64,000 nt of DNA, taken from NCBI GenBank assembly GCA_038212075.1, contig JBBQUV010000001.1:35200-99199 (forward strand), given 5' to 3'. The DNA is from Minisyncoccia bacterium. Its GTDB lineage: Bacteria > Patescibacteriota > Minisyncoccia > Phycocordibacterales > Phycocordibacteraceae. Below are positions 1 through 61,374 of this stretch, one piece after another (the first letter of the stretch is position 1; each line of letters begins with the position of its first letter). Made by a program: the position numbers and the translations under genes. Under the pieces are notes generated by a model. The model did no database searches. It was given only the letters and a program-made list of their open reading frames with translations, and was not told where the DNA came from.

Positions 1-430
1 CGCCTCCGCGGCAGTGGGTGACGAAGGGAAGGTATACGCAATAGATGTACAGGAAGATGTGCTCATACACCTAAAAGACGCGGCACAGCGCGCGGGACGA
101 AAAAATATTGAAACCATTTGGGGAAATTTTGAAAAACTAGGCGGTACCAAGCTTAAGGACGGTGTACTTGACGCAGTCATTCTCTCCAATGTGCTCTTTC
201 AAATTGAACACCACCAAGGCGCGCTCGCCGAAGTTTCGCGTGTCTTGAAACCAGATGGCAAAATACTGGTGATTGATTGGGCGGGTTCCTATAATGGGCT
301 TGGTCCTGCAACTCACCATGTCGTGAGCGAGCACCAAGCCGAAGAGTTATTTATTACCGCAGGGTTCCATAAGGCAAAAAGCTTCCGCGCGGGTCCCCAT
401 CACTACGGTATACTTTTCACAAAGCCATGA
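1..430 (+). CDS. SAM-dependent methyltransferase, C-terminal part (5' end lies outside window)
   Basis: The open frame runs to the window edge; class I methyltransferase-like C-terminal segments (DAVILSNVL, DGKILVIDW). Confidence 0.5.
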   Translation, partial: ASAAVGDEGKVYAIDVQEDVLIHLKDAAQRAGRKNIETIWGNFEKLGGTKLKDGVLDAVILSNVLFQIEHHQGALAEVSRVLKPDGKILVIDWAGSYNGLGPATHHVVSEHQAEELFITAGFHKAKSFRAGPHHYGILFTKP

Positions 431-1728
431 TGCACATGCGCCCATTCCAAATAATCCTTCTTGCCGTGTTTGCGGTGTCGGCGCTTGTTGGTCTGTACGT
501 GTTTTCCACCTTTAATGGGTTTGGCACCAGTGCCGCGCAGGTGGGAACGGTGGTTATCTGGGGCCCCCTTCCGCAGTCTGCGGTAGACAGTACGCTTAAC
601 ATATTGAAACAAGGGCACAAAGAGTATGCAAATGTTACGTACATAGAAAAACGAGCAGATACCTTTGATACCGAACTCGCAAATGCACTTGCTTCCGGCG
701 TCGGCCCCGACCTCATCATCATCAACCAAGAACAACTACTGACTGAAATTCCAAAAATCCAAACCATTCCGTACGCATCAATTCCACAGCGTACCTTTCT
801 TGATACCTTTCTTTCCCTTGATCAAATCTACTTAAACGCAACAGGTACTTACGGTATCCCTATTACCGTTGACCCTTTGGTGCTCTATTACAATCGCGCT
901 CTGCTCGCGTCTGCGGGAGTTCCAACACCGCCTGCCACATGGGAAGCGGTGGGGGGGCTTGTACCGCTTATTACTAAACAAAACGGAAGCCAAGTTATTT
1001 CCCGTAGTACGATTGCGCTTGGTAGCTACGGCAACATAACAAACGCACGAGCGATTCTTTCGCTTCTATTTCTTCAAGCGGGTTCAGTGGTAACTAAATC
1101 TACGCCACAAGGTATGCGATCTACCCTTGGCGAAACGGCAACGAGTGGCGGTGTCGCAACGCCGGCACAAGCGGCGGTAAATTTCTACACGCAGTTTGCA
1201 AACCCGGGGAAGACGGTCTATTCGTGGAATCCGTCGCTTTCGCCGTCGCGACAAGCGTTTACCACGGGCGACCTCGCACTCTATATTGGCTATGCATCGG
1301 AACTGTCGTCGCTGAAAGCGGCAAACCCAAACCTTTCGTTTGATATGGCGCCCATTCCAGAACCCGGCACAAGTGGCACGCGTAAAAACTATGGTCTTGG
1401 GTACGCATTCGCTATTCCAAAAGTTTCGAAAAACACGAGCGGAGCGTACCTTCTTGCAACGGCATTTGTTGACGATATTGCGCTAAAGTCACTTTCCGCT
1501 TCGCTTGGTATGGCGCCGGCAAAGCGAGCGCTCCTTACATTGGATCCCTCAAACCCCTACACCGCGGTGTACTACCCAGAGGCGCTGAATACCGCAGGCT
1601 GGCTTTCCCCAGCGCCATCTGCGGTAGACACCATCTTCTCTGCTATGATTAACAATATAACTTCTGGCCGCTATGATGCTTCACAAGCGCTCACTGCCGC
1701 GGATCAATCCCTCAATGCCGCATTTTAA
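427..1728 (+). CDS. extracellular solute-binding protein (ABC-transporter substrate-binding family 1-like), N-terminal TM anchor
   Basis: 433 aa with a signal/anchor helix; periplasmic binding-protein-like segments (VVIWGPLP, DLIIINQEQL, YYNRALL). ATGA overlap with the upstream gene. Confidence 0.45.
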   Translation: MMHMRPFQIILLAVFAVSALVGLYVFSTFNGFGTSAAQVGTVVIWGPLPQSAVDSTLNILKQGHKEYANVTYIEKRADTFDTELANALASGVGPDLIIINQEQLLTEIPKIQTIPYASIPQRTFLDTFLSLDQIYLNATGTYGIPITVDPLVLYYNRALLASAGVPTPPATWEAVGGLVPLITKQNGSQVISRSTIALGSYGNITNARAILSLLFLQAGSVVTKSTPQGMRSTLGETATSGGVATPAQAAVNFYTQFANPGKTVYSWNPSLSPSRQAFTTGDLALYIGYASELSSLKAANPNLSFDMAPIPEPGTSGTRKNYGLGYAFAIPKVSKNTSGAYLLATAFVDDIALKSLSASLGMAPAKRALLTLDPSNPYTAVYYPEALNTAGWLSPAPSAVDTIFSAMINNITSGRYDASQALTAADQSLNAAF

Positions 1729-1732
1729 TACC

Positions 1733-2125
1733 ATGCTGAAGCGAGCACGTCCCTATATATTTGTGGTACTGTTTTTCGCGTTTTTCGCACTCCCTGCAAT
1801 CAGTGTTTTTGCAGCTGATGGTAACGCGCTTCCCACAAGTCCGGATGGAACGAGCTGTGCAAATGGCACACTTTGTAATCCGCTCCAAAGTGCCACCATT
1901 CAAGATTTACTTGGAAAAGTGCTTGATGCAGTTATCGCTATTGGTACCGTGGTCGTTACTATCATGCTTGTTTACTGTGGGTTCCTCTTTGTTGTTGCGC
2001 AAGGTAATGAAGAAAAAGTGCGTGATGCTCGTTCCGCGCTTGTGTGGACGGTCATCGGCGCGCTCATACTTCTTGGCGCAAAGGTAATTTCAACCATCAT
2101 TAGCGCTACGGTGGCGACCCTATGA
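1733..2125 (+). CDS. TrbC/VirB2-like (T4SS pilin-like) small membrane protein, paralog 1
   Basis: Signal peptide MLKRARPYIFVVLFFAFFALPAISVFA, then two TM helices joined by a charged loop (AQGNEEKVRDARS). The internal ATG at 1733 is preferred over the ORF-track start at 1673, which overlaps the upstream gene. Confidence 0.6.
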   Translation: MLKRARPYIFVVLFFAFFALPAISVFAADGNALPTSPDGTSCANGTLCNPLQSATIQDLLGKVLDAVIAIGTVVVTIMLVYCGFLFVVAQGNEEKVRDARSALVWTVIGALILLGAKVISTIISATVATL

Positions 2126-2376
2126 TTCAAACCAGCGGACAGACCTTTTTGGGGCTTACCAACAACCTCGTTGCATTTGTAGACGGTTCGGTTATTCCGC
2201 TTCTCGGCGCGCTAGCGTTCGTGTTTTTTCTTATTGGTATGGTGCGCTTCTTTTTCTCACAGAGCGACGAAAATCGCGAGAAGGGAAGGCAGTTTGCACT
2301 TTGGGGCATGGTCGGACTTGTCGTTATTTTTACGGTATGGGGCGTCGTTACTCTATTTGTAGGTGCCCTTCAATAG
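2122..2376 (+). CDS. TrbC/VirB2-like small membrane protein, paralog 2 (no signal peptide)
   Basis: 84 aa, two TM helices with loop SQSDENREKGRQ; ATGA start/stop overlap with paralog 1. Confidence 0.55.
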   Translation: MIQTSGQTFLGLTNNLVAFVDGSVIPLLGALAFVFFLIGMVRFFFSQSDENREKGRQFALWGMVGLVVIFTVWGVVTLFVGALQ

Positions 2377-2427
2377 AACGGGGATAATGAATTGCGCTTT
2401 CACCGCTCCCTGCTACCCTTTGACTAT

Positions 2428-2844
2428 ATGAAAAAAATCGCACTAAAAAGTTCGCTCGCACTTGCGCTCGTCGCAGTGCCGTTTCTAGCGTTTGCTGATA
2501 CTACAAGTGGCACCGTGGGCGGGAAAATCACCACGTTCATAAACTTTTTGAATGCATCCCTTGTTCCTCTTATTTTTGCGGTAGCGTTTATTGTCTTTCT
2601 GTACTTTATATTTCAGTATTTTATTCTCGGTTCAGGCAACGAGGAAAAACTGAAAGAAGGGCGTATGTTTTTGCTCTACAGCATCATTGGTTTTGTCGTG
2701 ATGCTTTCGATATGGGGAATCGTGAATTTGTTTTACTACTCCCTTGATTTTGGTTCACAAAATCATCCAAATTTACCGACGTTTGGAACGGGAAGTGGCA
2801 ATTCCAGTAGTAGTTCAAATAGTCCCGTCAATAACAGCATCTAA
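2428..2844 (+). CDS. TrbC/VirB2-like small membrane protein, paralog 3
   Basis: Signal peptide MKKIALKSSLALALVAVPFLAFA, two TM helices and loop GSGNEEKLKEGR; Ser/Asn-rich C-terminal tail. Confidence 0.6.
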   Translation: MKKIALKSSLALALVAVPFLAFADTTSGTVGGKITTFINFLNASLVPLIFAVAFIVFLYFIFQYFILGSGNEEKLKEGRMFLLYSIIGFVVMLSIWGIVNLFYYSLDFGSQNHPNLPTFGTGSGNSSSSSNSPVNNSI

Positions 2845-2933
2845 TATAATCATCTTGTCCACAGAACCGTAATACCTGCATTGACTTCGTACCAAAGCCG
2901 ATTACCCTTATACCTATAGCCCTAAATACCATT

Positions 2934-3296
2934 ATGAAGAAACTTGCTTATCTCGGTGCTTCCTTTGCGCTTCCAATGCTCGCCTTTGCGCAGGCACAGA
3001 ACGTACAACAACTTGGTGATACTGTTATCCGAATTATCAACACGACGCTCGTACCGCTCGTGTTTGCTCTCGCCTTCATTGTTTTCCTTTGGGGCGTATT
3101 CCAGTTCTTCATCGCGGGTGCAAGCGACGAAGAGAAGCGCGAAGGCGGAAAGTCGTTGATGATCTACGGCTTCATCGGCTTTTTCGTGATGGTGTCCGTT
3201 TGGGGTATTGTGAACCTCCTTGTTGGAACCTTCAACCTTAACTCAAACGCTCCAGTGCAGTATCCGGGTGCTCCGTACACTCAGTCAGGGAATTAA
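2934..3296 (+). CDS. TrbC/VirB2-like small membrane protein, paralog 4
   Basis: Signal peptide MKKLAYLGASFALPMLAFAQA, two TM helices with loop AGASDEEKREGGKS. Confidence 0.65.
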   Translation: MKKLAYLGASFALPMLAFAQAQNVQQLGDTVIRIINTTLVPLVFALAFIVFLWGVFQFFIAGASDEEKREGGKSLMIYGFIGFFVMVSVWGIVNLLVGTFNLNSNAPVQYPGAPYTQSGN

Positions 3297-3313
3297 CGTT
3301 TTTTGAAAAGAAA

Positions 3314-3341
3314 ACCCCCGCCTTAGCGGGGATTTTCTTTT
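3314..3341 (+). terminator. rho-independent terminator
   Basis: ccccgc-ctta-gcgggg hairpin followed by attttctttt. Confidence 0.7.
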
Positions 3342-3389
3342 ACCCACGCACCTCTTTTATCCTGCGGGCTAGCGCCGTATACTAAGGAC

Positions 3390-3701
3390 ATGAAGAAACT
3401 TGCTTATCTCGGTGCGTCCTTTGCTCTTCCAATGCTCGCCTTTGCGCAGGCTAGTGGAGAAAACGCTTCGCAATTTTTTGACAACATAAAAACAAATATT
3501 GTTAACCCTATTATCACGCTTATCGCACTTGCCGCATTCGTAGTGTTTATATGGGGCGTTGTGGAATTTATTCGCAGTGCTGACGACGCGGAGAAGCGAG
3601 GAACCGGCCAACAGCATATGATATGGGGTATTGCCGGTCTCGTTATTATCTTTGGGGCAAACGCTATCATCGCTATTTTAAAAAATACATTTGGGTTGTA
3701 G
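3390..3701 (+). CDS. TrbC/VirB2-like small membrane protein, paralog 5
   Basis: The first 21 codons are nearly identical in nucleotide sequence to paralog 4; two TM helices, loop SADDAEKRGTGQQ. Confidence 0.65.
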   Translation: MKKLAYLGASFALPMLAFAQASGENASQFFDNIKTNIVNPIITLIALAAFVVFIWGVVEFIRSADDAEKRGTGQQHMIWGIAGLVIIFGANAIIAILKNTFGL

Positions 3702-3765: not shown

Positions 3766-4290
3766 TCAGTTGGGCGACGAGGTTTCATCCTCGCAGCTGA
3801 GCGTCTGCACTTGATTGGATGTGTTTTCGACAAATCCGACCAACCACAGCTGGATATTTTTGCCGCGTTCATTGACGCAGGTTCCACCCACCCTGTCGCA
3901 GATACGAAAGGTGTTGGGTGAAGGCGGCGGGGTGAAATTGAATGCACCCACCGGTCTGAACTTTGCAAAATGACCCGGCTGCAAGTACCGCATGACTTTG
4001 TCGGGGCCTTGGCATTTGCACGCCTTCTCCCCGTTTATGCCGCATACATGTGTCTGCCTATCGGCTTCCACAATCGCATTCACGGCGTCCTGCTGTGCCT
4101 GCTGTTGAGCCGCAACAATTGCTTGCCGCGACTCTTCCTGCAAGCCGAACCATTTGCTCCCAGCCGACACAATGACAACGAAGGCCACGAGGCCGATGAT
4201 TCCCCATTTGATGATCATATCGATGAATTGTTTTTGGGAAATTGCTGGTGTTGGTGGCGGTGTTGGCGCCGCCGGTGTGCTTGTTGACAT
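3766..4290 (-). CDS. hypothetical membrane-anchored protein with Cys-rich C-terminal domain
   Basis: 174 aa; Pro/Thr-rich N-terminus, one TM helix, six Cys in the C-terminal half. Its start overlaps the stop of the upstream SPFH gene, so they form an operon. Confidence 0.5.
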   Translation of the reverse strand: MSTSTPAAPTPPPTPAISQKQFIDMIIKWGIIGLVAFVVIVSAGSKWFGLQEESRQAIVAAQQQAQQDAVNAIVEADRQTHVCGINGEKACKCQGPDKVMRYLQPGHFAKFRPVGAFNFTPPPSPNTFRICDRVGGTCVNERGKNIQLWLVGFVENTSNQVQTLSCEDETSSPN

Positions 4291-4292
4291 GA

Positions 4293-5525
4293 CTATCTCC
4301 TCACGGGACGATTGTTGTTGACTGTTGGTTTTCTCGCTTCAAATGTTGGCTTGGGTGCCGGTGGCGGTTCGCCACCGATTTTCCGTGCCAAAGCATCTGC
4401 AACGGGCTTGAGTACTCCGTTAATGGCGGCGTTCGCGTCGAGGTCTTTGATACCGAAAACGGTTTCGTCGACTTTTCGAGTAGTTGCCAAGCCCATTTGC
4501 ATCTCGACGCTGGTAAGTGCGTCTTTGATGTTTATGCCGCTTGCAACCTGATCATCGACCATTTTTTTGATGGCCAGATTCTGCTCTATCTTCGCCGCCA
4601 TTTCGTCGGCTTGGTTTGCCTTAGCGAGAGCAGCCTCACGACGAGACTTCGGAATGTCAAAATATTCGACATCCGCGCCAGTGATTTGTACGCCTCTTGC
4701 GAGTGCGTACGAAAGAAACTGGCCGGCACGGTCGGCGATGATCTGAACACTGTGTTCTCCATCGACGAACTTGTCTTTGTCATCGTATAGACTGTTGTAG
4801 AGCTGGGCGTGCCTCTCAGCACTTTCCAGTGTTCCGTCATCAATTGGAAGATTAACCCAGTCTTTGACGTCGTCCTTGAGGTCGACAGAATCCTCCGCTC
4901 TTTTGAGTTGGTTCACAAAAAAGCGAATAACTGATTTGAACTCAAGGTCCAGAAGTGTGTCGATGGCCTTGACTTCTGTAAGCGACAGAACGGGATTTAC
5001 CGTCCTGCGGGTGAAGAACGCATTGGTCTCCACCTTCAAGTTATCGCCACCGGCGAGGTCGAAGAACGGTTCCGGATTGACCGGGTATTCCCGCATTTCA
5101 ACCGGAACACTTCCTTCAATTCCCGGTATACGCGGATGAATACCTGCGGTAAGCAGGGCGCCATCCGGTTTACCGAAGCGCGTTGAGACGCCTTCGCTAC
5201 CAAGCGGTACCTCGTTTGCCGCATTTGACGACTCACGCATGATCACGCGTATGACGTTGCCGCCCACGACGATCAAAACGATAAGTGCAATCGTGGCTGA
5301 GAAGTAGAAGGCAATCACGGCCGCAAAGGGAATCGCAACTGCGAACCCAGTAATGGCCGAGATGATACCGACACGCTTGAGACTTTCCCAAGGTGTAATG
5401 AGTGTGCCAGGCGCTGGTGCCGCCGCCCCTGGGGCGATACGGACAAACGCAAGCACCTCCGTGCGATATCGAAGTGCCAGAACTGCCATAAGCAGAACTG
5501 CCACGATGATTGCGATCGTTGCCAT
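4293..5525 (-). CDS. SPFH/band-7 (stomatin/flotillin-like) membrane protein
   Basis: 410 aa; N-terminal TM helices followed by an SPFH-like core and an Ala/Glu-rich coiled segment (REAALAKANQADEMAAKIEQ). Confidence 0.55.
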   Translation of the reverse strand: MATIAIIVAVLLMAVLALRYRTEVLAFVRIAPGAAAPAPGTLITPWESLKRVGIISAITGFAVAIPFAAVIAFYFSATIALIVLIVVGGNVIRVIMRESSNAANEVPLGSEGVSTRFGKPDGALLTAGIHPRIPGIEGSVPVEMREYPVNPEPFFDLAGGDNLKVETNAFFTRRTVNPVLSLTEVKAIDTLLDLEFKSVIRFFVNQLKRAEDSVDLKDDVKDWVNLPIDDGTLESAERHAQLYNSLYDDKDKFVDGEHSVQIIADRAGQFLSYALARGVQITGADVEYFDIPKSRREAALAKANQADEMAAKIEQNLAIKKMVDDQVASGINIKDALTSVEMQMGLATTRKVDETVFGIKDLDANAAINGVLKPVADALARKIGGEPPPAPKPTFEARKPTVNNNRPVRR

Positions 5526-5617: not shown

Positions 5618-5667
5618 GTGCTCACATAGCCCGTAGCTACAGGGTTTTTAGCCTGTTCTAAACAAAG

Positions 5668-5749
5668 TGCTGGGGAGAGGACTTGAACCTCCATCCCTTG
5701 CGGGGCCAGCTCCTAAGGCTGGTGCGTCTACCAATTTCGCCACCCCAGC
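5668..5749 (-). tRNA. tRNA-Leu (anticodon TAG)
   Basis: Cloverleaf read by eye: acceptor GCTGGGG/CCCCAGC, anticodon loop CTTAGGA, long variable arm, T-loop TTCAAGT. No encoded CCA. Confidence 0.8.
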
Positions 5750-5837
5750 ACTTTGGTCGGAACAGATCTTCCCATTGACGATACCATTCCTTAGATGTAA
5801 TTGAAAAAGCTCAGTTGTTTGCTACGATGCATGGTAC

Positions 5838-5910
5838 GCGCCTATAGCTCAGTTGGTAGAGCAGATCCCTCTTAAGGATAAGGTCCCTGGTTCGAGCCCA
5901 GGTAGGCGCA
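5838..5910 (+). tRNA. tRNA-Lys (anticodon CTT)
   Basis: Acceptor GCGCCTA/TAGGCGC, anticodon loop CTCTTAA, T-arm CCTGG-TTCGAGC-CCAGG. Confidence 0.75.
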
Positions 5911-5936
5911 CAAAGTATTTCTAGCCACCAAAACAA

Positions 5937-5963
5937 AAACAGCACGTACGTGCTGTTTTTGTT
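5937..5963 (+). terminator. rho-independent terminator after tRNA-Lys
   Basis: cagcacg/cgtgctg palindrome followed by tttttgttt. Confidence 0.6.
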
Positions 5964-6039
5964 TACTATGTGACGAGGTGGCTCGGTCACGAGTTGCGGA
6001 CGGATTGCTCCAAGTATTCGCAATCCGTCTCGCACTCTC

Positions 6040-6124
6040 GACCCGGGCTCGCCGTTGCTTCGCAACAAGGCTGTGCCTTTCGAGTCTCACACGCACGACG
6101 CGCAGGCGTCGTGCTCCTCGGCAC
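6040..6124 (+). repeat. structured element with an inverted copy of the tRNA-Leu(TAA) T-arm and acceptor 3' end, plus a hairpin insertion
   Basis: CTCGCCGT, a hairpin, GCTGTGCC, TTCGAGTCTCAC (matches the T-loop/stem of the adjacent minus-strand tRNA), hairpin gcacgacgcgcaggcgtcgtgc, then TCCTCGGCA (acceptor 3' side). Same layout as the elements at 13427-13505 and 29165-29277. Confidence 0.5.
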
Positions 6125-6147
6125 ATAACTGCGCTTCGCTTGCTCTG

Positions 6148-6236
6148 TGCCGAGGGTGAGACTCGAACTCACATGAGGTGTTTAAAGACCTCTAGGGATT
6201 TTAAGTCCCCTACGTCTACCATTCCGTCACCTCGGC
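6148..6236 (-). tRNA. tRNA-Leu (anticodon TAA)
   Basis: Acceptor GCCGAGG/CCTCGGC, anticodon stem GGGGA/TCCCT with loop CTTAAAA, long variable arm, T-loop TTCGAGT. Confidence 0.8.
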
Positions 6237-6248
6237 AAAACGCACAGG

Positions 6249-6320
6249 AGGCCTGGGGGGGAATCGAACCCCCGCATGTAGGATTTGCAGTCCCAAGTGT
6301 TACCACTTCACCACCAGGCC
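6249..6320 (-). tRNA. tRNA-Cys (anticodon GCA)
   Basis: Acceptor GGCCTGG/CCAGGCC, discriminator U, anticodon loop CTGCAAA, T-arm GGGGG-TTCGATT-CCCCC. Confidence 0.8.
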
Positions 6321-6330
6321 TTGGGTTTGA

Positions 6331-6690
6331 TTATAACTGTTTGCCTAATTCATCCAAGTGCTGGCGATTGCGCTCGCCAGCATCAAGAACAAACTGCACG
6401 CGAGGAAGTTCACGCGTGCGGGCGTGCTCACGCATATATTCACGAAATGCATCAGCGTTGCGATTCAAAAATTCAAGTGCGGTGGTGATTGCTTCATCGG
6501 GGAAAACGGTAACAAACACCGTCGCCCGTTCACCCTTGGAACCAAGTTCTGCGCGCGTGGCAGTGATAAGTGACGTGCCGTTTGATTCGCGCACAATAAA
6601 GTCTGCCGCAAGGTGCGTAAGCAGTTCTTCTACGCGGTCGTGGTGGCGTTTACTGCGTGAATCGGGTCGTGGTGGCGGGGTGAAGTCCAT
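6331..6690 (-). CDS. rbfA: ribosome-binding factor A
   Basis: 119 aa lying immediately downstream of infB, the classic infB-rbfA order; RbfA-like length and charge pattern. Confidence 0.7.
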   Translation of the reverse strand: MDFTPPPRPDSRSKRHHDRVEELLTHLAADFIVRESNGTSLITATRAELGSKGERATVFVTVFPDEAITTALEFLNRNADAFREYMREHARTRELPRVQFVLDAGERNRQHLDELGKQL

Positions 6691-6691
6691 A

Positions 6692-8173
6692 TTACGATTT
6701 TACGACATGGAAGGCGATCACTACGTCACCACCGGCGAGTTCAGCTTTGGTTTCTATTTGCATACCAAAGTCGCCCTCTACGCGGATTTCTTGCACATCA
6801 ACACGTGCCTGCTGAAGATTCACTATTTTTCCGCGACCAATCTCTTCTTCGCGACGGGTCATTTTTACCAGTGCACCAACAGCAAGAGTACCGCTTATCA
6901 GTTTTGCACCAAGCACACGCTTGGTTGATGTTTCGCTAAACACTTTTAGGATTTTGGCTTCGCCAAGCATCACCTCCTTTGCAACCTGCGGTGCGCGTTC
7001 GGCAAGAAGCTCTGCAACGCGTTTGCCGAGGTCGTAAATAATGCTAAACGATTCAATGGAGACGCCAGAACGGTCGGCAAGCTCGCGTGCGGCACTGTCA
7101 GTGGCAACAGAGAAGGCGATAACAACACCGTTTGCGGCTTGTGCATTTTTTACGTCACCTTCGCCGACTGCACCAATACCTGCGGACATGATGCGAATAA
7201 CGGCGTTTTCATGAGTAATTTTTGCAATCTCGTGCTTAATAGCTTCAAGACTTCCCGTCACGTCTGTTTTTAGGATAAGCGGAAGCACGGTCTTTCCGTC
7301 TTCAATCACCTCAGCAGTCACTCCGCGCGATGAATCTTTTTTATTTTTTGCAACAAATGCTTCGGCCTCTTTTCTATTTTTTACCGTTACAAACGGCGTA
7401 CCAGCTGGGGGAAGGGCACTGAATCCAGAAACGCGTGCGGGGGAAGACGCTCCTGCTTCTTTCACGCGGTTGCCTGCGAAGTTTTCAATAAAACGTACGG
7501 GAGCATAGGCATCTTCTGCAACAACGTAGTCTCCAGTATTGAGCGTGCCGTTTTTAACAATGAGTGTTGCGGCAAGCCCTTGGCGTGCGTCTTGTGTTGA
7601 TTCAAGAATAAAGCCAGACGCAGGAAGTTCCGGGTCGGCGGTAAATTCTGCAAGATCGGCAGTGAGAAGTACAAGGTCAAGAAGTTCGGGTACGCCAGCA
7701 CCTGATTTTGAGGAAACTGCCGCGAAGGGAATAGCGCCACCAAGACCTTCTAGATACACGCCGTTTTCAAGGAGTGAATGTTTTGCGCGTTCCGCGTCGG
7801 CACCGTTTTTGTCTATTTTAGTGAACGCGACAACGAAAGGGATATTTGCTTCGGTGATTGCAGAAAGTGCTTCGAGCGTTTGCGGCTTCACCCCTTCATC
7901 TGCGGCAACCACAAGGATGGCGACATCCGCCGCTTGTGCGCCGCGCGCGCGAAGCGCGCGAAAAGCTTCGTGTCCCGGTGTATCAAGAAAAGTGATGTTG
8001 CGAAGTTTGCCCTCGTGTTCGTGCTGAGCTTCGTATGCAGAAACGTGTTGAGTGATGCCACCCGCTTCGCCTGCAGTTACGTTTGCTTTACGGATGTAGT
8101 CCAGCAAGGAAGACTTGCCGTGGTCGATGTGACCCATTACCGCCACTATGGGCGGGCGAGGTGTAGACGCCAT
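6692..8173 (-). CDS. infB: translation initiation factor IF-2 (short form without the N-terminal extension)
   Basis: GTP-binding motifs AVMGHIDHGKSS and DTPGH; the C-terminal IF-2 domains are present. Confidence 0.9.
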   Translation of the reverse strand: MASTPRPPIVAVMGHIDHGKSSLLDYIRKANVTAGEAGGITQHVSAYEAQHEHEGKLRNITFLDTPGHEAFRALRARGAQAADVAILVVAADEGVKPQTLEALSAITEANIPFVVAFTKIDKNGADAERAKHSLLENGVYLEGLGGAIPFAAVSSKSGAGVPELLDLVLLTADLAEFTADPELPASGFILESTQDARQGLAATLIVKNGTLNTGDYVVAEDAYAPVRFIENFAGNRVKEAGASSPARVSGFSALPPAGTPFVTVKNRKEAEAFVAKNKKDSSRGVTAEVIEDGKTVLPLILKTDVTGSLEAIKHEIAKITHENAVIRIMSAGIGAVGEGDVKNAQAANGVVIAFSVATDSAARELADRSGVSIESFSIIYDLGKRVAELLAERAPQVAKEVMLGEAKILKVFSETSTKRVLGAKLISGTLAVGALVKMTRREEEIGRGKIVNLQQARVDVQEIRVEGDFGMQIETKAELAGGDVVIAFHVVKS

Positions 8174-13505: not shown

Positions 13506-13647
13506 AATTTTCTAGCAAGAAAATATCCGTGACCGCAAAGCGGAACCGTAGAATCTACAGGATTTGATAAGCGTACTCGCGGTCCTGCTGGGCTCGCCCT
13601 TGTGGGCAACCTACATCTCTTCAGATTTTGTGAGCTACAATATACAT

Positions 13648-14784
13648 ATGCGTGACTACAGGGCTCATATTTTCACACTCGCGTTTGCTGTCGTGCTCAT
13701 TATTCCATTCTTCGCCTTTGGCGCAGTGACCGATCCCGGTAGCTCCGGCTGGTCTATTGTCCCCAAGGAATGTAATTGCCCTCCGGCAAGTGATTCTGCG
13801 CAAGCGGCTGGATGGGGTTGTGTGCTCAAGGTTGTGGCAAATCTGATTCAGTTCGCAATCTATCTTAGTATTACTATTTCTGTACTAATGTTCGCCTATG
13901 CCGGCTTCCTTTGGGTGTTGAATCCCATAAATCCGGAAAATCGCGCGGCGGGAAGGAAGATATTAATGAATGCCGCCATCGGACTTCTCATTACACTTTC
14001 TGCGTGGCTTATCGTGAACACCCTTCTTATTGCACTTGGCGCTAATATTGACGGACAGGGCGGTATTGCTGGCACAACAAAACTACTTAGCGGCGGCTCT
14101 GACTGCACAAAGGGTGATCCGCTTGTAAATAATGGTGGAACGCTTGGAGGCGGTGGTGGAGACACAACAACGCCACCTGGCGGATGTCCATCTGGTCAAC
14201 AGTGTTCTGCAACCACCAAGACTTGTGAATACAAGACAACGACCACCATAACGTGTGGTGATAAAACGTGTGGAAAAAATGAAACCTGTGACGCAACAGC
14301 GAAAACGTGTACGCCTCCACAAGCCTGCACGCCACCCGCGGAAACTGGTAGTGGTGCCAATTGTCCTGCGGCGGCTCCTTCAGCAATGGTCGCGCTCCCA
14401 TCAGGAGATGTCGTTGGAGGAACTGGACTTGCTACGCCGGCAACTGTTCAAAACTACATTGCTATGCGCGCAGCAGCGCTACAAGCAGGATTTGACTTGA
14501 AAGTTTCTAGCGCTTATCGCTCAGATGCAACACAGGTTCAATTATGGAATCAATACTGTTCGTCTGGTACCTGCGGTGCCACAAAAGTGGCGAAGCCCTG
14601 CTCGCTCGGAGGAAATGGATCAAACCATAATTCTGGAGAAGCTCTTGATTTGACTGACGGATGTCATAATGGACAGAGCTGCAGTAGTCCAGCCTATAAC
14701 TGGTTGAAGACAAATGGAGGACGATGGAATTTTAGAAACGCTGTGCCCACTGACCCTGTGCACTGGTCACCGGACGGCCACTAG
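13648..14784 (+). CDS. fusion protein: TrbC/VirB2-like pilin domain, Cys/Thr/Gly-rich linker, and a peptidase M15 (VanY/D-Ala-D-Ala carboxypeptidase-like) domain
   Basis: Signal peptide; a two-TM pilin-like core with loop NPINPENRAAGRK; C-terminal M15 motifs SAYRSDATQVQLW, SNHNSGEALDL and DPVHWSPDG. The start was chosen at the signal-peptide Met (13648) rather than the ORF-track 13564. Confidence 0.65.
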   Translation: MRDYRAHIFTLAFAVVLIIPFFAFGAVTDPGSSGWSIVPKECNCPPASDSAQAAGWGCVLKVVANLIQFAIYLSITISVLMFAYAGFLWVLNPINPENRAAGRKILMNAAIGLLITLSAWLIVNTLLIALGANIDGQGGIAGTTKLLSGGSDCTKGDPLVNNGGTLGGGGGDTTTPPGGCPSGQQCSATTKTCEYKTTTTITCGDKTCGKNETCDATAKTCTPPQACTPPAETGSGANCPAAAPSAMVALPSGDVVGGTGLATPATVQNYIAMRAAALQAGFDLKVSSAYRSDATQVQLWNQYCSSGTCGATKVAKPCSLGGNGSNHNSGEALDLTDGCHNGQSCSSPAYNWLKTNGGRWNFRNAVPTDPVHWSPDGH

Positions 14785-28949: not shown

Positions 28950-29090
28950 GGGGGATCGTCTAACGGTAAGCAGAGCTTTCTGCCTGCGCTCGCTCGGAAC
29001 GGATAAGCAAAGCCTCATCCTTTCCTCGCTCGCTTGGCGGTAGGACAGCGGCCTTTGAAGCCAGTGATACGATAGAAATGTTCGATAATT
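28950..29090 (+). pseudogene. pseudo-tRNA: partial duplicate of tRNA-Gln (5' half and anticodon arm) split by a ~64-nt insertion, lacking T-arm and acceptor 3' strand
   Basis: GGGGGATCGTCTAACGGTA and GGACAGCGGCCTTTGAAGCC are identical to the downstream tRNA-Gln but are separated by an insert. The 3' portion diverges (AGTGATACGATAGAAATGTTCGATAATTT). Confidence 0.6.
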
Positions 29091-29092
29091 TT

Positions 29093-29161
29093 GGGGGATC
29101 GTCTAACGGTAGGACAGCGGCCTTTGAAGCCGTTAATTTTGGTTCGATTCCAAGTCCCCCA
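29093..29161 (+). tRNA. tRNA-Gln (anticodon TTG)
   Basis: Acceptor GGGGGAT/GTCCCCC, anticodon stem GCGGC/GCCGT with loop CTTTGAA, T-arm TTGG-TTCGATT-CCAA, discriminator A. Confidence 0.75.
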
Positions 29162-29164
29162 GCA

Positions 29165-29277
29165 AAAATGTGCGGAGCAGATTTTAGTGCGGGGAAGCGA
29201 GACGTCTGCACGTCTCGTGTCTTGGAATCGAACGCCGGAGCATGTTCCATTCAGCAGAATGGAACGGCGAGGCGGTG
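29165..29277 (+). repeat. structured element with an inverted copy of the tRNA-Gln T-arm, plus hairpins
   Basis: Hairpin cgagacgtctgcacgtctcg, CTTGGAATCGAA (reverse complement of the tRNA-Gln T-loop/stem), CGCCGGAGC, hairpin ttccattcagcagaatggaa, and ACGGCGAGGCGGTG. Shares motifs with the elements at 6040 and 13427. Confidence 0.5.
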
Positions 29278-29391
29278 CTCGACCAAAGTTTCTTATGAGC
29301 GAAGCGAATTAGAAACTTGAAGTGCTCTTGTGGTATAGACCATTACCGAGCGACGGCGAGGTAGTGAGTTGAAGGAGATAAGTGTAATCAC

Positions 29392-29409
29392 GGTCCAAGT
29401 TCCCCAGCA
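29392..29409 (+). repeat. direct repeat of the tRNA-Gln 3' terminus (att-like)
   Basis: GGTCCAAGTTCCCCAGCA compared with the tRNA 3' end ATTCCAAGTCCCCCAGCA (16/18 identical), about 230 bp downstream of the tRNA. Confidence 0.5.
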
Positions 29410-29508
29410 AATTAGGACTAAGCACGTATGAGGGTTCCATTTGCGTTGCAGCGAAGTCCTTTTTGTTCAGGTCGTTGTAATTAACGCTTTGTCAAGTTAT
29501 AGTAAGTC

Positions 29509-29691
29509 ATGTATATGGAGGAAAATCCGGACATTCTGACACTAGAGCAAGCCAGTAAGCTCCTGAATTGCCACCCAAACACGTTGAGGAATTGGGACAA
29601 TAAAGGAATCCTGAAGGCCATTCGCTTTGGTACGCGGAAGGATCGTCGGTACAGAAAAAGCGACATACTTAAGCTGCTAAAACAAAAATAA
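29509..29691 (+). CDS. excisionase/MerR-family helix-turn-helix DNA-binding protein (Xis-like)
   Basis: 60 aa; LTLEQASKLLNCHPNTLRNWDNKGILKAIRFGTRKDRRY matches the HTH_17/excisionase pattern. Confidence 0.6.
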   Translation: MYMEENPDILTLEQASKLLNCHPNTLRNWDNKGILKAIRFGTRKDRRYRKSDILKLLKQK

Positions 29692-29693
29692 TT

Positions 29694-30620
29694 ATGAAAA
29701 ACTACTATCGCATAATGCTTGGACGAAAAAGTAGCCACGCTGATGAGGCACATAAGGGCAATTTCGTTGCGGCGGGCTTCATTAAAGACAAGGACCTCAC
29801 GCGTCACCTACCTGACAATTGGCGTGATTTTAATAAAGAATTCATCCCATTATTTCTTGATCAGAATCCTGAAAAGACAAAGATATCAGCGGGTCTCGCG
29901 TGCGGAATGCTCTGGACTGTCGCTAAGGGGGTTTTGGTGGGAGACATAGTGCTCTGCCCGGATGGTAAGGGTAGTTACTACGCAGGCGAGGTTACTGGCG
30001 AGTATGAATATCATAAGGGCGAAACGTTGCCGCATCGTCGGTCGGTTCGTTGGTTCACTCGTGCCATCTCACGTGACGAAATGAGCGAACCACTCAAGAA
30101 TTCAGCAGGTTCGATTGGTACGGTCAGCAATATAACGAAATATGCGGAGGAAATTGAGGCGCTAATTTCCGGCAGTCTTCCTGCCTCAATCATTTCGACT
30201 GATGCGACCATTGAAGACCCAAGCGAATTCGCGCTTGAAAAACATTTGGAGGACTTTCTTGTTCAAAACTGGCATGGCACAGAGTTAGGTAAGCGATTCG
30301 ATATTTATGAAGAGGATGGTGAAAAGGTTGGGCAACAATACCCAAGCGATACCGGTCCCATTGATATTCTCGCTATCAGTAAAGACAAAAAAGAGATAGC
30401 TGTCATCGAGCTCAAAAAAGGTCGTGCAAGTGATGTGGTCGTGGGACAAGTTCAACGATACATGGGGTATGTGAAAGAAGAATTAGCTGAAGACAATCAG
30501 TCCGTGCGAGGCATCATCATTGCGTTCGAGAATGATGTCAAAATAAATCGTGCCCTCTCTGTTGCTCCGAACATTGAGTTCTACACCTACAAAATCCACT
30601 TTAAGCTAGAGAAAAAATAA
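29694..30620 (+). CDS. two-domain protein: N-terminal unknown domain plus a C-terminal PD-(D/E)xK nuclease-fold domain (restriction-endonuclease-like)
   Basis: C-terminal GPIDILAISKDKKEIAVIELKKG.....GQVQRYMGYV, a D...E-L-K nuclease signature with a downstream Q..Y segment. It starts 2 nt after the xis-like gene. Confidence 0.55.
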   Translation: MKNYYRIMLGRKSSHADEAHKGNFVAAGFIKDKDLTRHLPDNWRDFNKEFIPLFLDQNPEKTKISAGLACGMLWTVAKGVLVGDIVLCPDGKGSYYAGEVTGEYEYHKGETLPHRRSVRWFTRAISRDEMSEPLKNSAGSIGTVSNITKYAEEIEALISGSLPASIISTDATIEDPSEFALEKHLEDFLVQNWHGTELGKRFDIYEEDGEKVGQQYPSDTGPIDILAISKDKKEIAVIELKKGRASDVVVGQVQRYMGYVKEELAEDNQSVRGIIIAFENDVKINRALSVAPNIEFYTYKIHFKLEKK

Positions 30621-30758
30621 TTTCATGAGCAAAAGAGAAACAAATTCAAGTATGTCCAAAGAGCAGGAGCGAGCAGAGGATTGATGTGGTTGAATTAAAC
30701 AAGTTTGCAAAGCTATATAAAAAAGAATTAAAACATTTTATAAATTAACTTTAATATT

Positions 30759-31376
30759 ATGGATTCAAAAGAAACAAAAAATATATGGATAGTGGTCGTT
30801 GTTATTGCATTGATAGCGGGTGCATATTATTTTGGCACAGCATCAAAAAATCAAACTGGAGTTACAGATAATACACAAGATACTAATACGCTTACACCCA
30901 CCCAAGAAACTGCCACGCAACAAAATCAGGTTGCTCCAGTTGTTACCATTAAACCAAAAGTTACTGTCCCACAGAATACATACACTAACTTCGAGTTGTC
31001 AGAAAATCCAAAATATTTATTTAGCAAAGATTTTAACCCAAATAAAGCAAAGGTCTTTGGAGTTGGTATAGGTGACTTAAGAAGTAATATTACTTCTATA
31101 GTACCTCAACAAGAATACGGAAGCTGGGTAAGAACAACAAATTCAACTGCATATCGTATAGTAAATGGCATAGTGGTGGAAATAGCGCTTAATAATGATG
31201 GCATAGCTAATCTTTTTAGGACAGATGAAATTATTATAAAATTCGGTCAATCAGACCAAACTAAAACAACCGGTAACCCTCCATACACTACGACCACCTA
31301 TTACTACGTAAACAGAGGCTTGGTTGTTTATGATTATGGATCATCGGGTATAAAAGTAAATATTATTGGCAACTAA
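30759..31376 (+). CDS. hypothetical membrane-anchored/secreted protein (AT-rich gene)
   Basis: 205 aa, N-terminal TM helix, Thr/Gln-rich linker. Noticeably lower GC than the flanking DNA. Confidence 0.45.
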   Translation: MDSKETKNIWIVVVVIALIAGAYYFGTASKNQTGVTDNTQDTNTLTPTQETATQQNQVAPVVTIKPKVTVPQNTYTNFELSENPKYLFSKDFNPNKAKVFGVGIGDLRSNITSIVPQQEYGSWVRTTNSTAYRIVNGIVVEIALNNDGIANLFRTDEIIIKFGQSDQTKTTGNPPYTTTTYYYVNRGLVVYDYGSSGIKVNIIGN

Positions 31377-31381
31377 AATGT

Positions 31382-32287
31382 TTGAACAGAGCTGAGTTTT
31401 TTATGTCTATACCAGAAAACTTTTTTAAAGATTCGAACGGAATAATCAAGTGGCACCAAGAACACCACCCGAAATCTTACGAAAGCTATTTTCTGATAAA
31501 AGAGAAAGTTAAAAATTCCAAATTTTCTGGCTCGGCTGGACTTCTGCGAAATTTAGAAGGAAATAAAACTGTCACAGGATTTCTGTCTTTTTTGACTGAA
31601 ATAAATCTTGCCAATTTGTTTTTGGATAAGAAGGTTAAAGATTTGTCTTATGAACCGAAACATATGTCTGGTGTTGATTTCTCTTTTAATGACATCGCGA
31701 TATCTGTTAAGAATCTCCACCCAAAAAATTACGAAAAGAGCGAACAACAAGTAATAGATGCATTTCGTACGGCAGGAGGCGGTAAAACGAGTTTGACTCA
31801 TAAAAACTTCTCCAGTATTGCTATTGAAGTTAAAAAAACTGAAATGGGTACTTATGGCTGGGAGAGGTTAGAAACTGGACACAGCGGATTTCTCGATAGT
31901 GATTTATACGAAATGTCTGCTCCATTAAATTACATTGGAAAATTTGAACAGTCAGATATAAAAAATAACAAAAGGGTCTTATTTTTCTTTATTCAATCAA
32001 GTGATTTTGCACAGTATTATATTCAAGATATCGTAATTTGGTATTTTGGATATCCTGTTGAAAAGTATCAACCAATTTTTCAGAACGATATGAATTGGTA
32101 TAACAAGCTTCTAAAAACACCTCCTAAGAAAAATAATATTGATGCAATCGTATTTATGTATGCACCCAATACCTTATTGAGCTGGCCACTTGGCTGTTTG
32201 GGTGATGTATCAGATAAGGCGGCACGATTACAGATTTATGCGAAGGAAAAATCTTTTTCCGAACAGATAAAATTAATTTTATCTTAA
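31382..32287 (+). CDS. hypothetical protein (AT-rich gene)
   Basis: 301 aa, Lys/Asn-rich, no recognised motif; lies 6 nt after the previous gene, so likely an operon. Confidence 0.45.
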   Translation: MNRAEFFMSIPENFFKDSNGIIKWHQEHHPKSYESYFLIKEKVKNSKFSGSAGLLRNLEGNKTVTGFLSFLTEINLANLFLDKKVKDLSYEPKHMSGVDFSFNDIAISVKNLHPKNYEKSEQQVIDAFRTAGGGKTSLTHKNFSSIAIEVKKTEMGTYGWERLETGHSGFLDSDLYEMSAPLNYIGKFEQSDIKNNKRVLFFFIQSSDFAQYYIQDIVIWYFGYPVEKYQPIFQNDMNWYNKLLKTPPKKNNIDAIVFMYAPNTLLSWPLGCLGDVSDKAARLQIYAKEKSFSEQIKLILS

Positions 32288-32483
32288 GGGAGCAATCCTC
32301 GCTGTTTTATAATATTTCCTAAAAACGGCGGGGATTTGTGCGCGAACGGGAGGGTGGCTCAAGCGCATTTGCATTTGAGCCTCGGACATTTTCGCTAGGG
32401 CGTCCTGACTCACGGATGAGCGCCGCCGTTATCTTGCAATACAGAAATTCGAAGCGGAAGCGACACCACATACAGTCGATATG

Positions 32484-53641: not shown

Positions 53642-54838
53642 ATGAATTGTGCCCGTCGCTCATGTGCCATCTTTCTCATGTTGCTCATGTTTCCGCTTGC
53701 TTTGTATGCGCAGGACGCTACGGAAAGCACCGGTCAAGCATCTGCGCTTGAACAGCAAATCGCTGCGTATAAAACACAACTAAAAACGCTCGGCGCGCAA
53801 AAGCAAACACTACAGTCAACCATTCAGTCTTTGGATATTTCTCGTTCGGAAATAACGGCACAAATTAAACTCACGCAAAGTAAAATTGGGGACGCGAACG
53901 TTGCGTTGAAAGGGTTGTCATCAGATATTTTGAATAAAGAAGATGCTATCTCACTTGAAAAGGCCGGTGTATCCGGTTCGTTGCGTGACGTTGCCATTTT
54001 AGACGATCACCCACTTGCCGCCGTAGTATTTTCTTCAGATTCATTTGGGAAAGCGTGGGCGGCGATAGACGCTGATACGGTACTTGCCGCATCGCTTCAA
54101 GATCACACAAAAAACCTTGCCTCGGCAAAAACGATACTGGTGGGAAGACAAACAAAAGTGACGGCGGCAAAAAAAGACCTTTCGAATTTAAGCATTGATT
54201 TGTTAAATCAACAGCGGTCACTTGATGCAAATAAAAAACAAAAGCAGGCGCTCTTAGCTCAAACGAAAAACAGTGAAGGAAATTATCAAAAATTACTTGC
54301 TTCAGCACAAGCAGAACTCATCAGTCTTACCGCCTTTACCGCGGGTGGTAGCGCACTCGGCACACAAACCATTTGTGATGATTGGGGTTGCTACTACAAC
54401 CAACGCGACTCTGCGTGGGGAAGTATTCCACTGAACGGTACTCGCTACACACTTCTTTCTGCTGGATGCTTGGTTACGTCTATGGCGATGGTGATGACGC
54501 ATTATGGATATAAAAATGTAACACCTGTCACTATTAATTCGAATCCAGCAAACTTCACTGCATACGCGCCGCTTCTCCTTAAAACCGTGTATGCCGCAGG
54601 AGTATCCGCAACGCGTGTTGATGCCACTATGGACGCCGTGCTTGCTACGGGCAATCCAGTGGTTGTGGGGCTTCACCCGACTAAGGGCGCCACGCACTTT
54701 GTGGTAATCACGAGCGGCAGTAACGGTTCCTATCTTATGCGCGATCCGTGGATTGCTGGTGCAAAAGACGTTAGTTTTACTGCACACTACAGCTTGGCAA
54801 GCATCTACCAAGTAAGTAAGGTCGTCGTTGGTGGTTAA
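53642..54838 (+). CDS. secreted coiled-coil protein with a C-terminal papain-like (peptidase C39-like) cysteine peptidase domain
   Basis: Signal peptide; a long Gln/Leu-rich heptad region; C-terminal GCLVTSMAMVMTHYG, which resembles the catalytic Cys region of the C39-like fold. Confidence 0.55.
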   Translation: MNCARRSCAIFLMLLMFPLALYAQDATESTGQASALEQQIAAYKTQLKTLGAQKQTLQSTIQSLDISRSEITAQIKLTQSKIGDANVALKGLSSDILNKEDAISLEKAGVSGSLRDVAILDDHPLAAVVFSSDSFGKAWAAIDADTVLAASLQDHTKNLASAKTILVGRQTKVTAAKKDLSNLSIDLLNQQRSLDANKKQKQALLAQTKNSEGNYQKLLASAQAELISLTAFTAGGSALGTQTICDDWGCYYNQRDSAWGSIPLNGTRYTLLSAGCLVTSMAMVMTHYGYKNVTPVTINSNPANFTAYAPLLLKTVYAAGVSATRVDATMDAVLATGNPVVVGLHPTKGATHFVVITSGSNGSYLMRDPWIAGAKDVSFTAHYSLASIYQVSKVVVGG

Positions 54839-60441: not shown

Positions 60442-61374
60442 TTATAAAGATGTCGCCGATGCTGTGTCTTGGGGCACTTCAACTACCGTGCTTTGTGTGG
60501 CGTCAAAGATAAGGAATCCTACAATAAGGAGTAACAGACAGAAGGCGCCACCAAATATCTCTACTAAGCCAGTACGCAAGTGGACCACAATGGCGATAGA
60601 CAAGAGAATGAGCACACAGCCAGCAAGCGCCGAAAGAATATAAATAATAGTGTGGGTTGGTGAAGTCATTACTTGGTCTATAAAACCAAGAACGGTTTGT
60701 GTTTCTGCCCCCAACACTTTTTTGGTGCCAGTGTTCGCGTTTACGCTATCAGCACTAGTCGGTATCTTGCCTGTTACCACTGGCGCAGGTTTTGCAAATA
60801 GTTGTACCACAAAGGTTACTTGCTCCCCCTTGTACATACCGTCTGCGGTCGCAATACCGATGCGTGTGTATTGGGGTTTTACGATGTTTGCTCGATGCGT
60901 TGGCGAGTTCATCCACGCTGACTCAACGTCCTTTGAGTCAGAAAAGTTTACCGCAAGATTTTCACCCGCATATTCATATGTATAACCAAGCACATCAAAC
61001 CAGTGCCATGGTTGGTACCCTTCTGGCGTCACGTGGGCAAAATATCCCTTTGCTGCCATGTCGTTTGCTTTCAGCTGTGCCGCTTGGTCGAGTAGTGGGT
61101 CTTCGATAAGTGCGTCAAGTTTTTGTGTTTGTCGGTCGGCGTTGGTAAGTGAAATGAGTGCGCCCGGAAGCACCGATGCAAGAAAATTTCCTTTCCCAAA
61201 TCCACTACTTGAAGTAAGAAAGTATGCGCCTTGAAGCACACCCACCATCACTACGACGGCAATAACTGAAGAGTAAGCAAAAATTTGCGGGCTGTATTGA
61301 TTTTCTTTATGCGGTACAAGAAAATTGTGAACGCGATGATGGAGCGCTTTGTGGTTTTTTTTCATACTAGCCAC
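60442..61374 (-). CDS. CAP/SCP (YkwD-like) domain protein with N- and C-terminal TM helices
   Basis: GENLAVNF....AWMNSPTHRANIV...YTRIGIA CAP-domain signature. Confidence 0.6.
   Translation of the reverse strand: MASMKKNHKALHHRVHNFLVPHKENQYSPQIFAYSSVIAVVVMVGVLQGAYFLTSSSGFGKGNFLASVLPGALISLTNADRQTQKLDALIEDPLLDQAAQLKANDMAAKGYFAHVTPEGYQPWHWFDVLGYTYEYAGENLAVNFSDSKDVESAWMNSPTHRANIVKPQYTRIGIATADGMYKGEQVTFVVQLFAKPAPVVTGKIPTSADSVNANTGTKKVLGAETQTVLGFIDQVMTSPTHTIIYILSALAGCVLILLSIAIVVHLRTGLVEIFGGAFCLLLLIVGFLIFDATQSTVVEVPQDTASATSL

Follow-up and report, generated by a model that had tools for sequence, protein, structure and literature searches.

Five consecutive small genes on the forward strand, here called pil1 to pil5, occupy positions 1733-3701 of a 64,000-nt stretch of DNA from a Minisyncoccia bacterium (contig JBBQUV010000001.1 of assembly GCA_038212075.1, positions 35,200-99,199 of the forward strand; this whole stretch is referred to as the window). 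They are genuine genes of pilin-like proteins of the VirB2/TrbC superfamily, belonging to family PF18895, and the array is a further case of the tandem VirB2-like pilin arrays published for Patescibacteria by Quinonero-Coronel et al. (2025, Microb Genom; PMC12102498), who searched 3,035 genomes with PF18895 and PF04956. Together with a methyltransferase gene and a gene for a protein resembling solute-binding proteins (SBP-like), pil1-pil5 constitute one vertically inherited, operon-like cassette that is common to hundreds of Paceibacteria species. The cassette is ancient and strongly conserved, and it is neither unusual nor a fast-diversifying expansion; what is new here is the single syntenic, SBP-coupled, VirB4-distal, five-part organisation under purifying selection. 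The components of the cassette, at the 5' end of the window, are as follows.

14..430, forward strand: 3' part of a class I S-adenosylmethionine-dependent methyltransferase gene, the first gene of the cassette; its 5' end is cut by the window start
427..1728, forward strand: SBP-like gene (SBP_bac_1, membrane-anchored, 433 aa); PF01547 at E=2.9e-22, PF13416 at E=6e-17
1733..2125, forward strand: pil1, 130 aa, loop GNEEK; an alternative ATG start at 1673 gives 150 aa
2122..2376, forward strand: pil2, 84 aa, leaderless, loop SDENREK; the start overlaps the pil1 stop by 4 nt (ATGA)
2428..2844, forward strand: pil3, 138 aa, loop GNEEKLKEGR; an alternative TTG start at 2392 gives 150 aa
2934..3296, forward strand: pil4, 120 aa, signal peptide and hairpin, loop SDEEKREGGK
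3306..3341, forward strand: terminator-like hairpin between pil4 and pil5, AAAAGAAAACCCCCGC cttA GCGGGGATTTTCTTTT
3390..3701, forward strand: pil5, 103 aa, hairpin, loop DDAEKRGTGQ; the last pilin of the array

Family membership and architecture of pil1-pil5

An initial annotation of this DNA had described five co-directional small-protein open reading frames (ORFs) on the forward strand between 1733 and 3701, and the ORF list bears this out, with every loop motif that was quoted being found. It had further assigned them to the TrbC/VirB2, or type IV secretion system (T4SS) pilin, family, and had named a lack of VirB2/TrbC-type similarity in a profile search as the result that would count against it; the search was run and found similarity to PF18895. 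The Pfam gathering scores, applied to whole proteins, are 26.6 bits for PF18895 (T4SS_pilin) and 27.9 bits for PF04956 (TrbC/VirB2). All five proteins exceeded the former (pil1, 42.0; pil2, 39.8; pil3, 40.2; pil4, 46.3; and pil5, 35.4 bits), and pil5 also exceeded the latter with 31.4 bits, so the assignment holds. The PF04956 score of pil1 was sub-threshold at 22.8 bits (E=1e-4), pil3 and pil4 scored 12-13 bits, and pil2 gave no match. In the relatives described below, PF18895 was matched by 69/69 pil1 and 69/69 pil5 orthologues, and the TrbC model was matched at E<=0.01 by 65/69 and 47/69, respectively; resemblance to TrbC is thus a property of the orthologue groups and not of one sequence. 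All five ORFs also matched NF045849 over nearly the full length of the model, an NCBIfam family of "pilin-like conjugal transfer proteins" that represents Mbov_0395 and MMCAP2_0565 of mycoplasma integrative and conjugative elements; pil4 just reached its cut-off of 40 bits with 40.6, and pil5, pil2, pil3, and pil1 scored 33.4, 27.5, 26.5, and 25.6 bits.

The family is a large one. A homology search with pil4 returned 570 related proteins at E<=0.001, with identities of 58-82% among the 120 listed, and several of the homologues are already named "pilin" by NCBI; a profile built from pil4 orthologues retrieved 9,180 cluster representatives at the same threshold. A tblastn search of 72,556 plasmids yielded nothing for pil4 and one insignificant match for pil5, so that no sequence-level link to conjugative plasmids could be shown. 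In the available part of Table S3 of PMC12102498, PrgF matches stand beside VirB2 matches, which prompted the idea that PF18895 might be PrgF of pCF10. That identity was rejected: PrgF (L089, 19545-19772) gave no match to PF18895, and the hhalign probability against the pil4 and pil5 profiles was 0.2% and 2%.

Topology and leaders were predicted heuristically, from Kyte-Doolittle 19-residue windows and AxA-type sites. Every mature protein contains two strongly hydrophobic segments around a short charged loop, and the loops share the acidic-basic pattern D/N-E-E-K...R/K. The initial annotation had noted a signal peptide in four of the five, and hydropathy and cleavage-type sites agree: pil1 and pil3 begin with a strongly hydrophobic N-terminal leader, whereas the leader shared by pil4 and pil5 is too weak for the Kyte-Doolittle cut-off, yet it shows an MKK n-region and ends in a cleavage-type site, AFAQA; pil2 has two transmembrane (TM)-like windows and no leader. 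In pil1 the signal peptide is followed by a variable, Cys-containing, exposed N-terminal segment and then by the VirB2-like hairpin, and pil3 carries a Ser/Asn-rich C-terminal tail after its hairpin. The common architecture proposed for the array therefore stands with respect to the two helices and charged loop of all five proteins but has to be corrected for pil5, which has a signal peptide in this genome only.

An AlphaFold2 model of pil4, made with 54 orthologues, consists of a leader helix followed by a helical hairpin (helices 24-61 and 66-99; mean pLDDT 79.7). In pil4, conservation is far stronger in the hairpin core than in the exposed tails: the commonest residue accounts for a fraction of 0.83 in TM1, 0.80 in the loop, and 0.88 in TM2, which is nearly invariant, compared with 0.55 in the N-terminal and 0.53 in the C-terminal tail. 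Within the array, pairwise identity among pil1-pil5 averages only 32%, with a maximum of 48%.

The cassette across relatives

One genome per GTDB species was scanned for relatives of the array; at least 538 matches were obtained, and 80 loci were fetched. The record titles name Paceibacterota, Parcubacteria, Kaiserbacteria, and Nomurabacteria, together with many metagenome-assembled genomes auto-labelled Saccharibacteria. The order of genes is nearly constant: methyltransferase, SBP-like gene, pil1, pil2, pil3, pil4, pil5, then convergent genes, RbfA, and IF-2. The SBP-like ORF adjoins the first pilin in 69 of the 71 species-level Paceibacteria loci with enough upstream sequence, a methyltransferase-like ORF is present in 69/80 genome loci, and IF-2 lies downstream in 40/44. 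In the five loci with called genes (L002, L004, L006, L087, and L088), the methyltransferase orthologues occupy the equivalent position and match Methyltransf_11, Methyltransf_25, or Methyltransf_31 of Pfam. Two exceptions (L068 and L084) contain only a pil4-pil5 pair in a different context, without the SBP-like gene, pil1, pil2, or pil3, which suggests that pil4 and pil5 can exist as a minimal unit.

The genes at the front of the cassette are closely packed. In the window, the methyltransferase gene overlaps the start of the SBP-like gene by 4 nt, and the SBP-like gene, directly 5' of pil1, is apparently co-operonic with it. The SBP-like stop and the pil1 start overlap or are 4 nt apart in the loci with called genes, and the 4-nt overlap of pil1 and pil2 seen in the window recurs in four of these five (L002, L004, L087, and L088). 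These overlaps and spacings suggest translational coupling from the SBP-like gene through pil1 to pil2.

Sixty-eight arrays were complete; 45 contained five genes, 21 contained six, and two contained seven. Five diversified paralogues in tandem had been thought unusual in the initial annotation; this cannot be maintained in view of these numbers and of the 441 published arrays of 2-11 pilin genes, found in 383 assemblies (PMC12102498). By clustering, pil1 is confined to the first position or positions of the array, and pil5 invariably closes it; pil4 comes before pil5, either directly or separated from it by a single additional divergent copy. Copy number varies only at the middle positions (that of pil3 among them), from one to four. 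Across species, pil1, pil4, and pil5 are thus separate positional orthologue groups.

Mean identity to the window is 51% for pil1, 53% for pil2, 49% for pil3, 59% for pil4, the most conserved of the five, and 57% for pil5; the corresponding values for neighbouring genes are 64% (methyltransferase), 51% (SBP-like), 44% (RbfA), and 62% (IF-2). The pilins are comparable in conservation to IF-2 and more conserved than RbfA. Median ratios of nonsynonymous to synonymous divergence (dN/dS; Nei-Gojobori, gene-wide, 80 closely related locus pairs) were 0.17, 0.10, 0.16, 0.12, and 0.11 for pil1 to pil5, and 0.13, 0.08, and 0.07 for the SBP-like gene, IF-2, and RbfA; synonymous divergence was mostly saturated, which makes the ratios rough, but their direction is unambiguous. 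The maximum for any pilin pair was 0.58. All five pilin positions are under purifying selection, and orthology combined with low dN/dS indicates that the divergence of the paralogues is ancient and individually maintained, not ongoing.

One recent change was detected. Over its first 62 nt (3390-3451), beginning exactly at the ATG, pil5 repeats the 5' end of pil4 (2934-2995) with 97% identity, whereas pil5 is leaderless in all 68 relatives compared (77-87 aa where genes were called), including L087 and L088, whose pil4 is 79% identical. The pil4 signal peptide has therefore been grafted onto pil5 in this genome alone, and the sequences point to a very recent graft or gene conversion that is unique among the genomes compared.

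Related proteins and surrounding genes

A hidden Markov model built from the five pilins and run against all window ORFs found only one further member, a protein in which a pilin domain is fused to a VanY D-Ala-D-Ala carboxypeptidase domain. It and the two genes convergent to the array are located as follows.

3766..4290, reverse strand: 174-aa bitopic Cys-containing protein; convergent, and context outside the pilin operon
4293..5525, reverse strand: SPFH/Band_7 membrane protein, 410 aa; convergent; PF01145 at 24.3 bits against a cut-off of 23.6
13645..14784, forward strand (ORF listed as 13552-14781): pilin-VanY fusion; PF18895 at 28.6 bits and PF02557 at 44.1 bits

The fusion has a signal peptide, two TM helices, the loop NPINPENRAAGRK, a Gly/Thr/Cys-rich linker, and the VanY domain at its C-terminus. 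About 100 proteins (counted as clusters) are related to it, most of which combine PF18895 with PF02557; some are encoded on cassette-bearing contigs, and in L087, a pilin-domain gene lies in the matching position after clpB. The protein may be a pilin-anchored wall-remodelling enzyme with a role like that of VirB1. Many of the top matches to the pil4 profile are single polypeptides of 230-370 aa that contain two or three hairpins, joined by hydrophilic linkers of 30-40 aa, with no more than one leader, at the N-terminus. They appear to be true fusions, not read-through products, and, in the manner of a Rosetta stone, hint that hairpins pack side by side.

The neighbours named in the initial annotation were recovered by Pfam, with the SBP_bac_1 protein 5' of the array (427-1728) and the convergent Band_7 gene (4293-5525) on its other side. 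The Band_7 gene has Pfam-supported counterparts in the matching position in L002, L004, L006, and L088, but at E<=1e-4, BLAST detected the protein in only one fetched locus (L048, 28% identity). A homology search with the 174-aa protein returned no homologue except itself, and its positional counterparts are 17-27% identical, so that the position is conserved while the sequences are barely alignable. For the 174-aa protein, the identity of a VirB8-like T4SS component was also considered, but these sequences provide no alignment usable for structure prediction. The 174-aa protein and Band_7 are a fast-evolving surface pair beside slowly evolving pilins, and the 174-aa protein evolves much faster than the pilins. 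At 5667-6320, the Band_7 gene and rbfA are separated by four tRNA genes (Leu, Lys, Leu, and Cys) on both strands; an ORF at 5978-6928 overlaps both tRNAs and rbfA and is probably spurious.

Farther away, the G+C content falls to 0.37 at about 29000-32300, against about 0.48-0.50 elsewhere, just after tRNA-Gln (29092-29163). This stretch, which may be an integrated foreign island, contains an ORF for a NucS/PDDEXK-like nuclease (29694-30620) and two ORFs (30759-31376 and 31382-32287) without a Pfam match. A Peptidase_C39-like protein is encoded on the forward strand at 53642-54838, a secreted CAP/SCP-domain protein with hydrophobic segments on the reverse strand at 60442-61374, and an HlyD-family protein on the forward strand at 62345-63865; these three genes, at the far end of the window, are related to the envelope or to secretion.

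Possible roles and meaning of the cassette

We lean toward the view that the five proteins contribute to a T4SS-dependent, heteromeric filament or conduit at the cell surface, with pil4 as the major subunit and the others as accessory ones; the multi-pilin appendage that was one suggestion of the initial annotation is plausible. In outline, pil1-pil5 would insert into the cytoplasmic membrane with both termini outside and the D/N-E-E-K...R/K loop in the cytoplasm. The Sec pathway and signal peptidase would be used by pil1, pil3, and pil4 (and here also by pil5), whereas the leaderless pil2, and normally also pil5, would insert directly. The subunits would then assemble into a structure in which each has a fixed role. 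The bulk would be pil4, whereas pil1, pil2, pil3, and pil5 would have fixed accessory functions in priming or at the tip or base; the additional exposed segment at its N-terminus makes pil1 a candidate for a distal or adhesive subunit. A VirB4-type T4SS ATPase encoded elsewhere in the genome would drive assembly, and the filament would serve host contact or exchange in an epibiotic lifestyle. The choice of pil4 as the major subunit is suggested by its being the most conserved member and by the terminator hairpin that follows it. This hairpin has 16-nt arms that are 94% complementary and was also listed by a terminator scan; it gives weak support to pil4 ending a main transcript. Comparable hairpins were found after the middle-position genes in 6/163 cases and after pil1 in 0/69. 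A promoter scan found eight sites, against 5.0 +/- 2.4 expected from shuffled sequence, and hence no excess.

The connection with a T4SS comes from the family and from the literature. In Southlakia epibionticum, a series of pilins within the T4SS cluster (SEML1_0006-0019) is essential (Wang et al. 2023, Cell), and the T4SS cluster of Saccharibacteria likewise contains homologous arrays; in cultured Paceibacteria, few secreted proteins are expressed as highly as the T4SS pilins (Kuroda et al. 2024). The conserved pilin-VanY fusion, which would place an enzyme for wall remodelling on the same membrane module, is a further point in favour. A pilus of the PF18895 family has not yet been shown in any Patescibacterium, and the wording of the literature is "potential to elaborate conjugative pili". 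In the published survey, arrays were scored in the neighbourhood of virB4 (within 20 coding sequences; Fig. S9 legend of PMC12102498) and were most abundant in Microgenomatia and Saccharimonadia; in the part of Table S3 available, PF18895 matches appear only with VirB4 proximity given as Yes. The present array, like those, consists of at least two adjacent PF18895/PF04956 genes of low identity, but it is not near virB4 in the window, nor are its counterparts in the flanks of the relatives, and VirB4-distal cassettes of this kind were therefore probably not counted. Four Paceibacteria listed as VirB4-positive in Table S1 of that paper (Parcubacteria bacterium C7867-001, -004, -007, and -008) do carry the cassette (L015, L038, L050, and L078), which means that a T4SS ATPase is present in such genomes, but elsewhere; the same paper places virB4 of Paceibacteria near dnaA/dnaN.

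Comparison with known systems helps to place the array. It shares with the other patescibacterial VirB2 arrays the families PF18895/PF04956, tandem co-directional divergent paralogues, and a monoderm host of the candidate phyla radiation; it differs in lying in a Paceibacteria-type genome, away from virB4, tied to methyltransferase and SBP-like genes, and in its fixed orthologous five-part composition under purifying selection. VirB2 of Agrobacterium, TrbC of RP4, and TraA of F likewise have a signal peptide, two hydrophobic helices, and a short charged loop, and the likeness extends to the TrbC matches of pil5 (above the cut-off), of pil1 (sub-threshold), and of most of their orthologues. Such canonical conjugative pilins are usually encoded by one gene per system, in a virB, trb, or tra operon beside virB3/virB4, and in diderm hosts, whereas here there are five paralogues, two of them normally leaderless, away from virB4 in a monoderm-type organism. 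Mbov_0395 and MMCAP2_0565 come from wall-less monoderms with systems of the MPF-FATA (mating pair formation) type, but those are single genes on mobile elements, whereas the present genes are chromosomal, vertically inherited, and multi-copy. The major and minor (pseudo)pilins of type II secretion systems and type IV pili (GspG plus GspH-K) offer a functional analogy only: about five distinct, non-interchangeable small subunits are encoded together, and one of them is conserved much more strongly than the rest and is presumably the more abundant. A type IV pilin combines one N-terminal helix with a globular head and is processed by prepilin peptidase; fold and family are unrelated to those of pil1-pil5, and no sequence relationship was found or is claimed.

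Several observations weigh against a T4SS-dependent filament. No VirB4, VirD4, or VirB6 was found in the 64-kb window, which is part of a 171-kb contig; every window ORF of at least 390 aa has a housekeeping or otherwise unrelated Pfam assignment (ClpB, RelA/SpoT, TopA, a P-type ATPase, and others), and further ORFs are likewise non-T4SS. Nor were T4SS genes found within 6-10 kb of the cassette in the five loci with called genes, where gyrA and housekeeping genes lie upstream and the flanks also hold IF-2, ClpB, and the like. The link to a T4SS machine therefore depends on family membership and literature only. Foldseek comparison of the pil4 model with the PDB gave only generic helical hairpins (best E=0.5), although a two-helix hairpin is too simple for a fold search to be informative, and hmmsearch of the pil4-orthologue profile against all PDB sequences gave no pilin, the best match being a de novo designed channel (E=0.4); neither search returned a significant match to the solved VirB2/TraA pilins. 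The division into major and minor subunits would be one of analogy, and a terminator follows pil4 in only 15/69 relatives. We know of no precedent in T4SS loci for the tight coupling to an SBP-like gene, and a purely membrane-embedded role would suit the multi-hairpin fusions and the hairpin that anchors an enzyme just as well.

Such a role is the strongest alternative, although we consider it less likely: the five hairpins would form a VirB4-independent, hetero-oligomeric platform of ten TM helices that works with the SBP-like protein in solute capture, uptake, or signalling, or that docks surface enzymes. It would account for the joining of the SBP-like gene to the operon in 69/71 loci, with stop and start overlapping or 4 nt apart, and for the absence of T4SS ATPase genes beside the cassette in every locus seen; conservation is highest in the TM helices, the hairpin anchors a VanY peptidase in about 100 proteins, and single polypeptides with two or three hairpins exist. 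A few pil1 and pil5 orthologues even give weak matches to DctQ (the TRAP small subunit), but only 5-6 of 69 sequences do so, with E no better than 5e-4, and no transporter family is above threshold. No ABC permease or ATPase gene adjoins the SBP-like gene, and no permease or ATPase gene was seen among the window ORFs scanned; the only significant family matches are to T4SS pilins, of which the homologous arrays of Saccharibacteria lie inside a T4SS cluster.

Antigenic or host-range variation was suggested for the published arrays by analogy with Bartonella and Anaplasma (PMC12102498), and the initial annotation raised the same possibility. The five genes would then be interchangeable alternative pilins, diversifying for evasion or host fit. 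Bartonella and Anaplasma indeed have several virB2-family genes in a row that are proposed to diversify for immune evasion. Consistent with the proposal, identity within the array is about as low as in the published arrays (mean 25%, maximum 54%), copy number at the middle positions differs between species, and variability is greatest in the exposed N- and C-terminal tails. The gene-level evidence is largely against it, however, and we regard it as improbable: pil1, pil4, and pil5 are positional orthologues, the pilins remain 49-59% identical to those of the window across species, the gene-wide dN/dS is 0.10-0.17 at every position and does not exceed 0.58 in any pair, and the sole recent exchange seen is the 62-nt copy of a signal peptide. 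Conservation like that of IF-2 at such dN/dS values speaks instead for fixed, distinct subunit roles. Finally, that the ORFs are spurious, or are generic small hydrophobic peptides with a chance resemblance to pilins, might be argued from the many weak Pfam matches to unrelated TM families that such short hydrophobic proteins also give and from the generic hairpins found by Foldseek, but is ruled out by the scores of all five above a curated gathering score, the 9,180 representatives of the pil4 profile, and the conservation of order and sequence in 68 or more species, where dN/dS is far below 1.

Returning to the T4SS-pilin reading, a more elaborate form of it is quite speculative: a distinct, VirB4-distal module of Paceibacteria in which one major and four accessory subunits, none interchangeable, would build the filament or conduit. 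The co-translated, membrane-anchored SBP-like protein would be its partner, so that the structure would capture or channel solutes from the host, and the pilin-anchored VanY would open the wall. If true, T4SS pilins would for the first time be found in a structure that has a defined set of several subunits and a partner binding substrate, and the published reading of antigenic variation would be overturned.

For genome annotation, the finding is ordinary. VirB2-like arrays are, however, among the few Patescibacteria-specific features that have been tied to an epibiotic lifestyle, and the one species amenable to genetics cannot do without them. Within Paceibacteria, a large class, the array is a fixed cassette of five parts and not a variable family; this shifts the working hypothesis away from evasion of immunity or host and toward a heteromeric structure whose subunits differ in role. 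This makes testable predictions: that pil4 is the major subunit, that the structure depends on VirB4, and that it interacts with the SBP-like protein.

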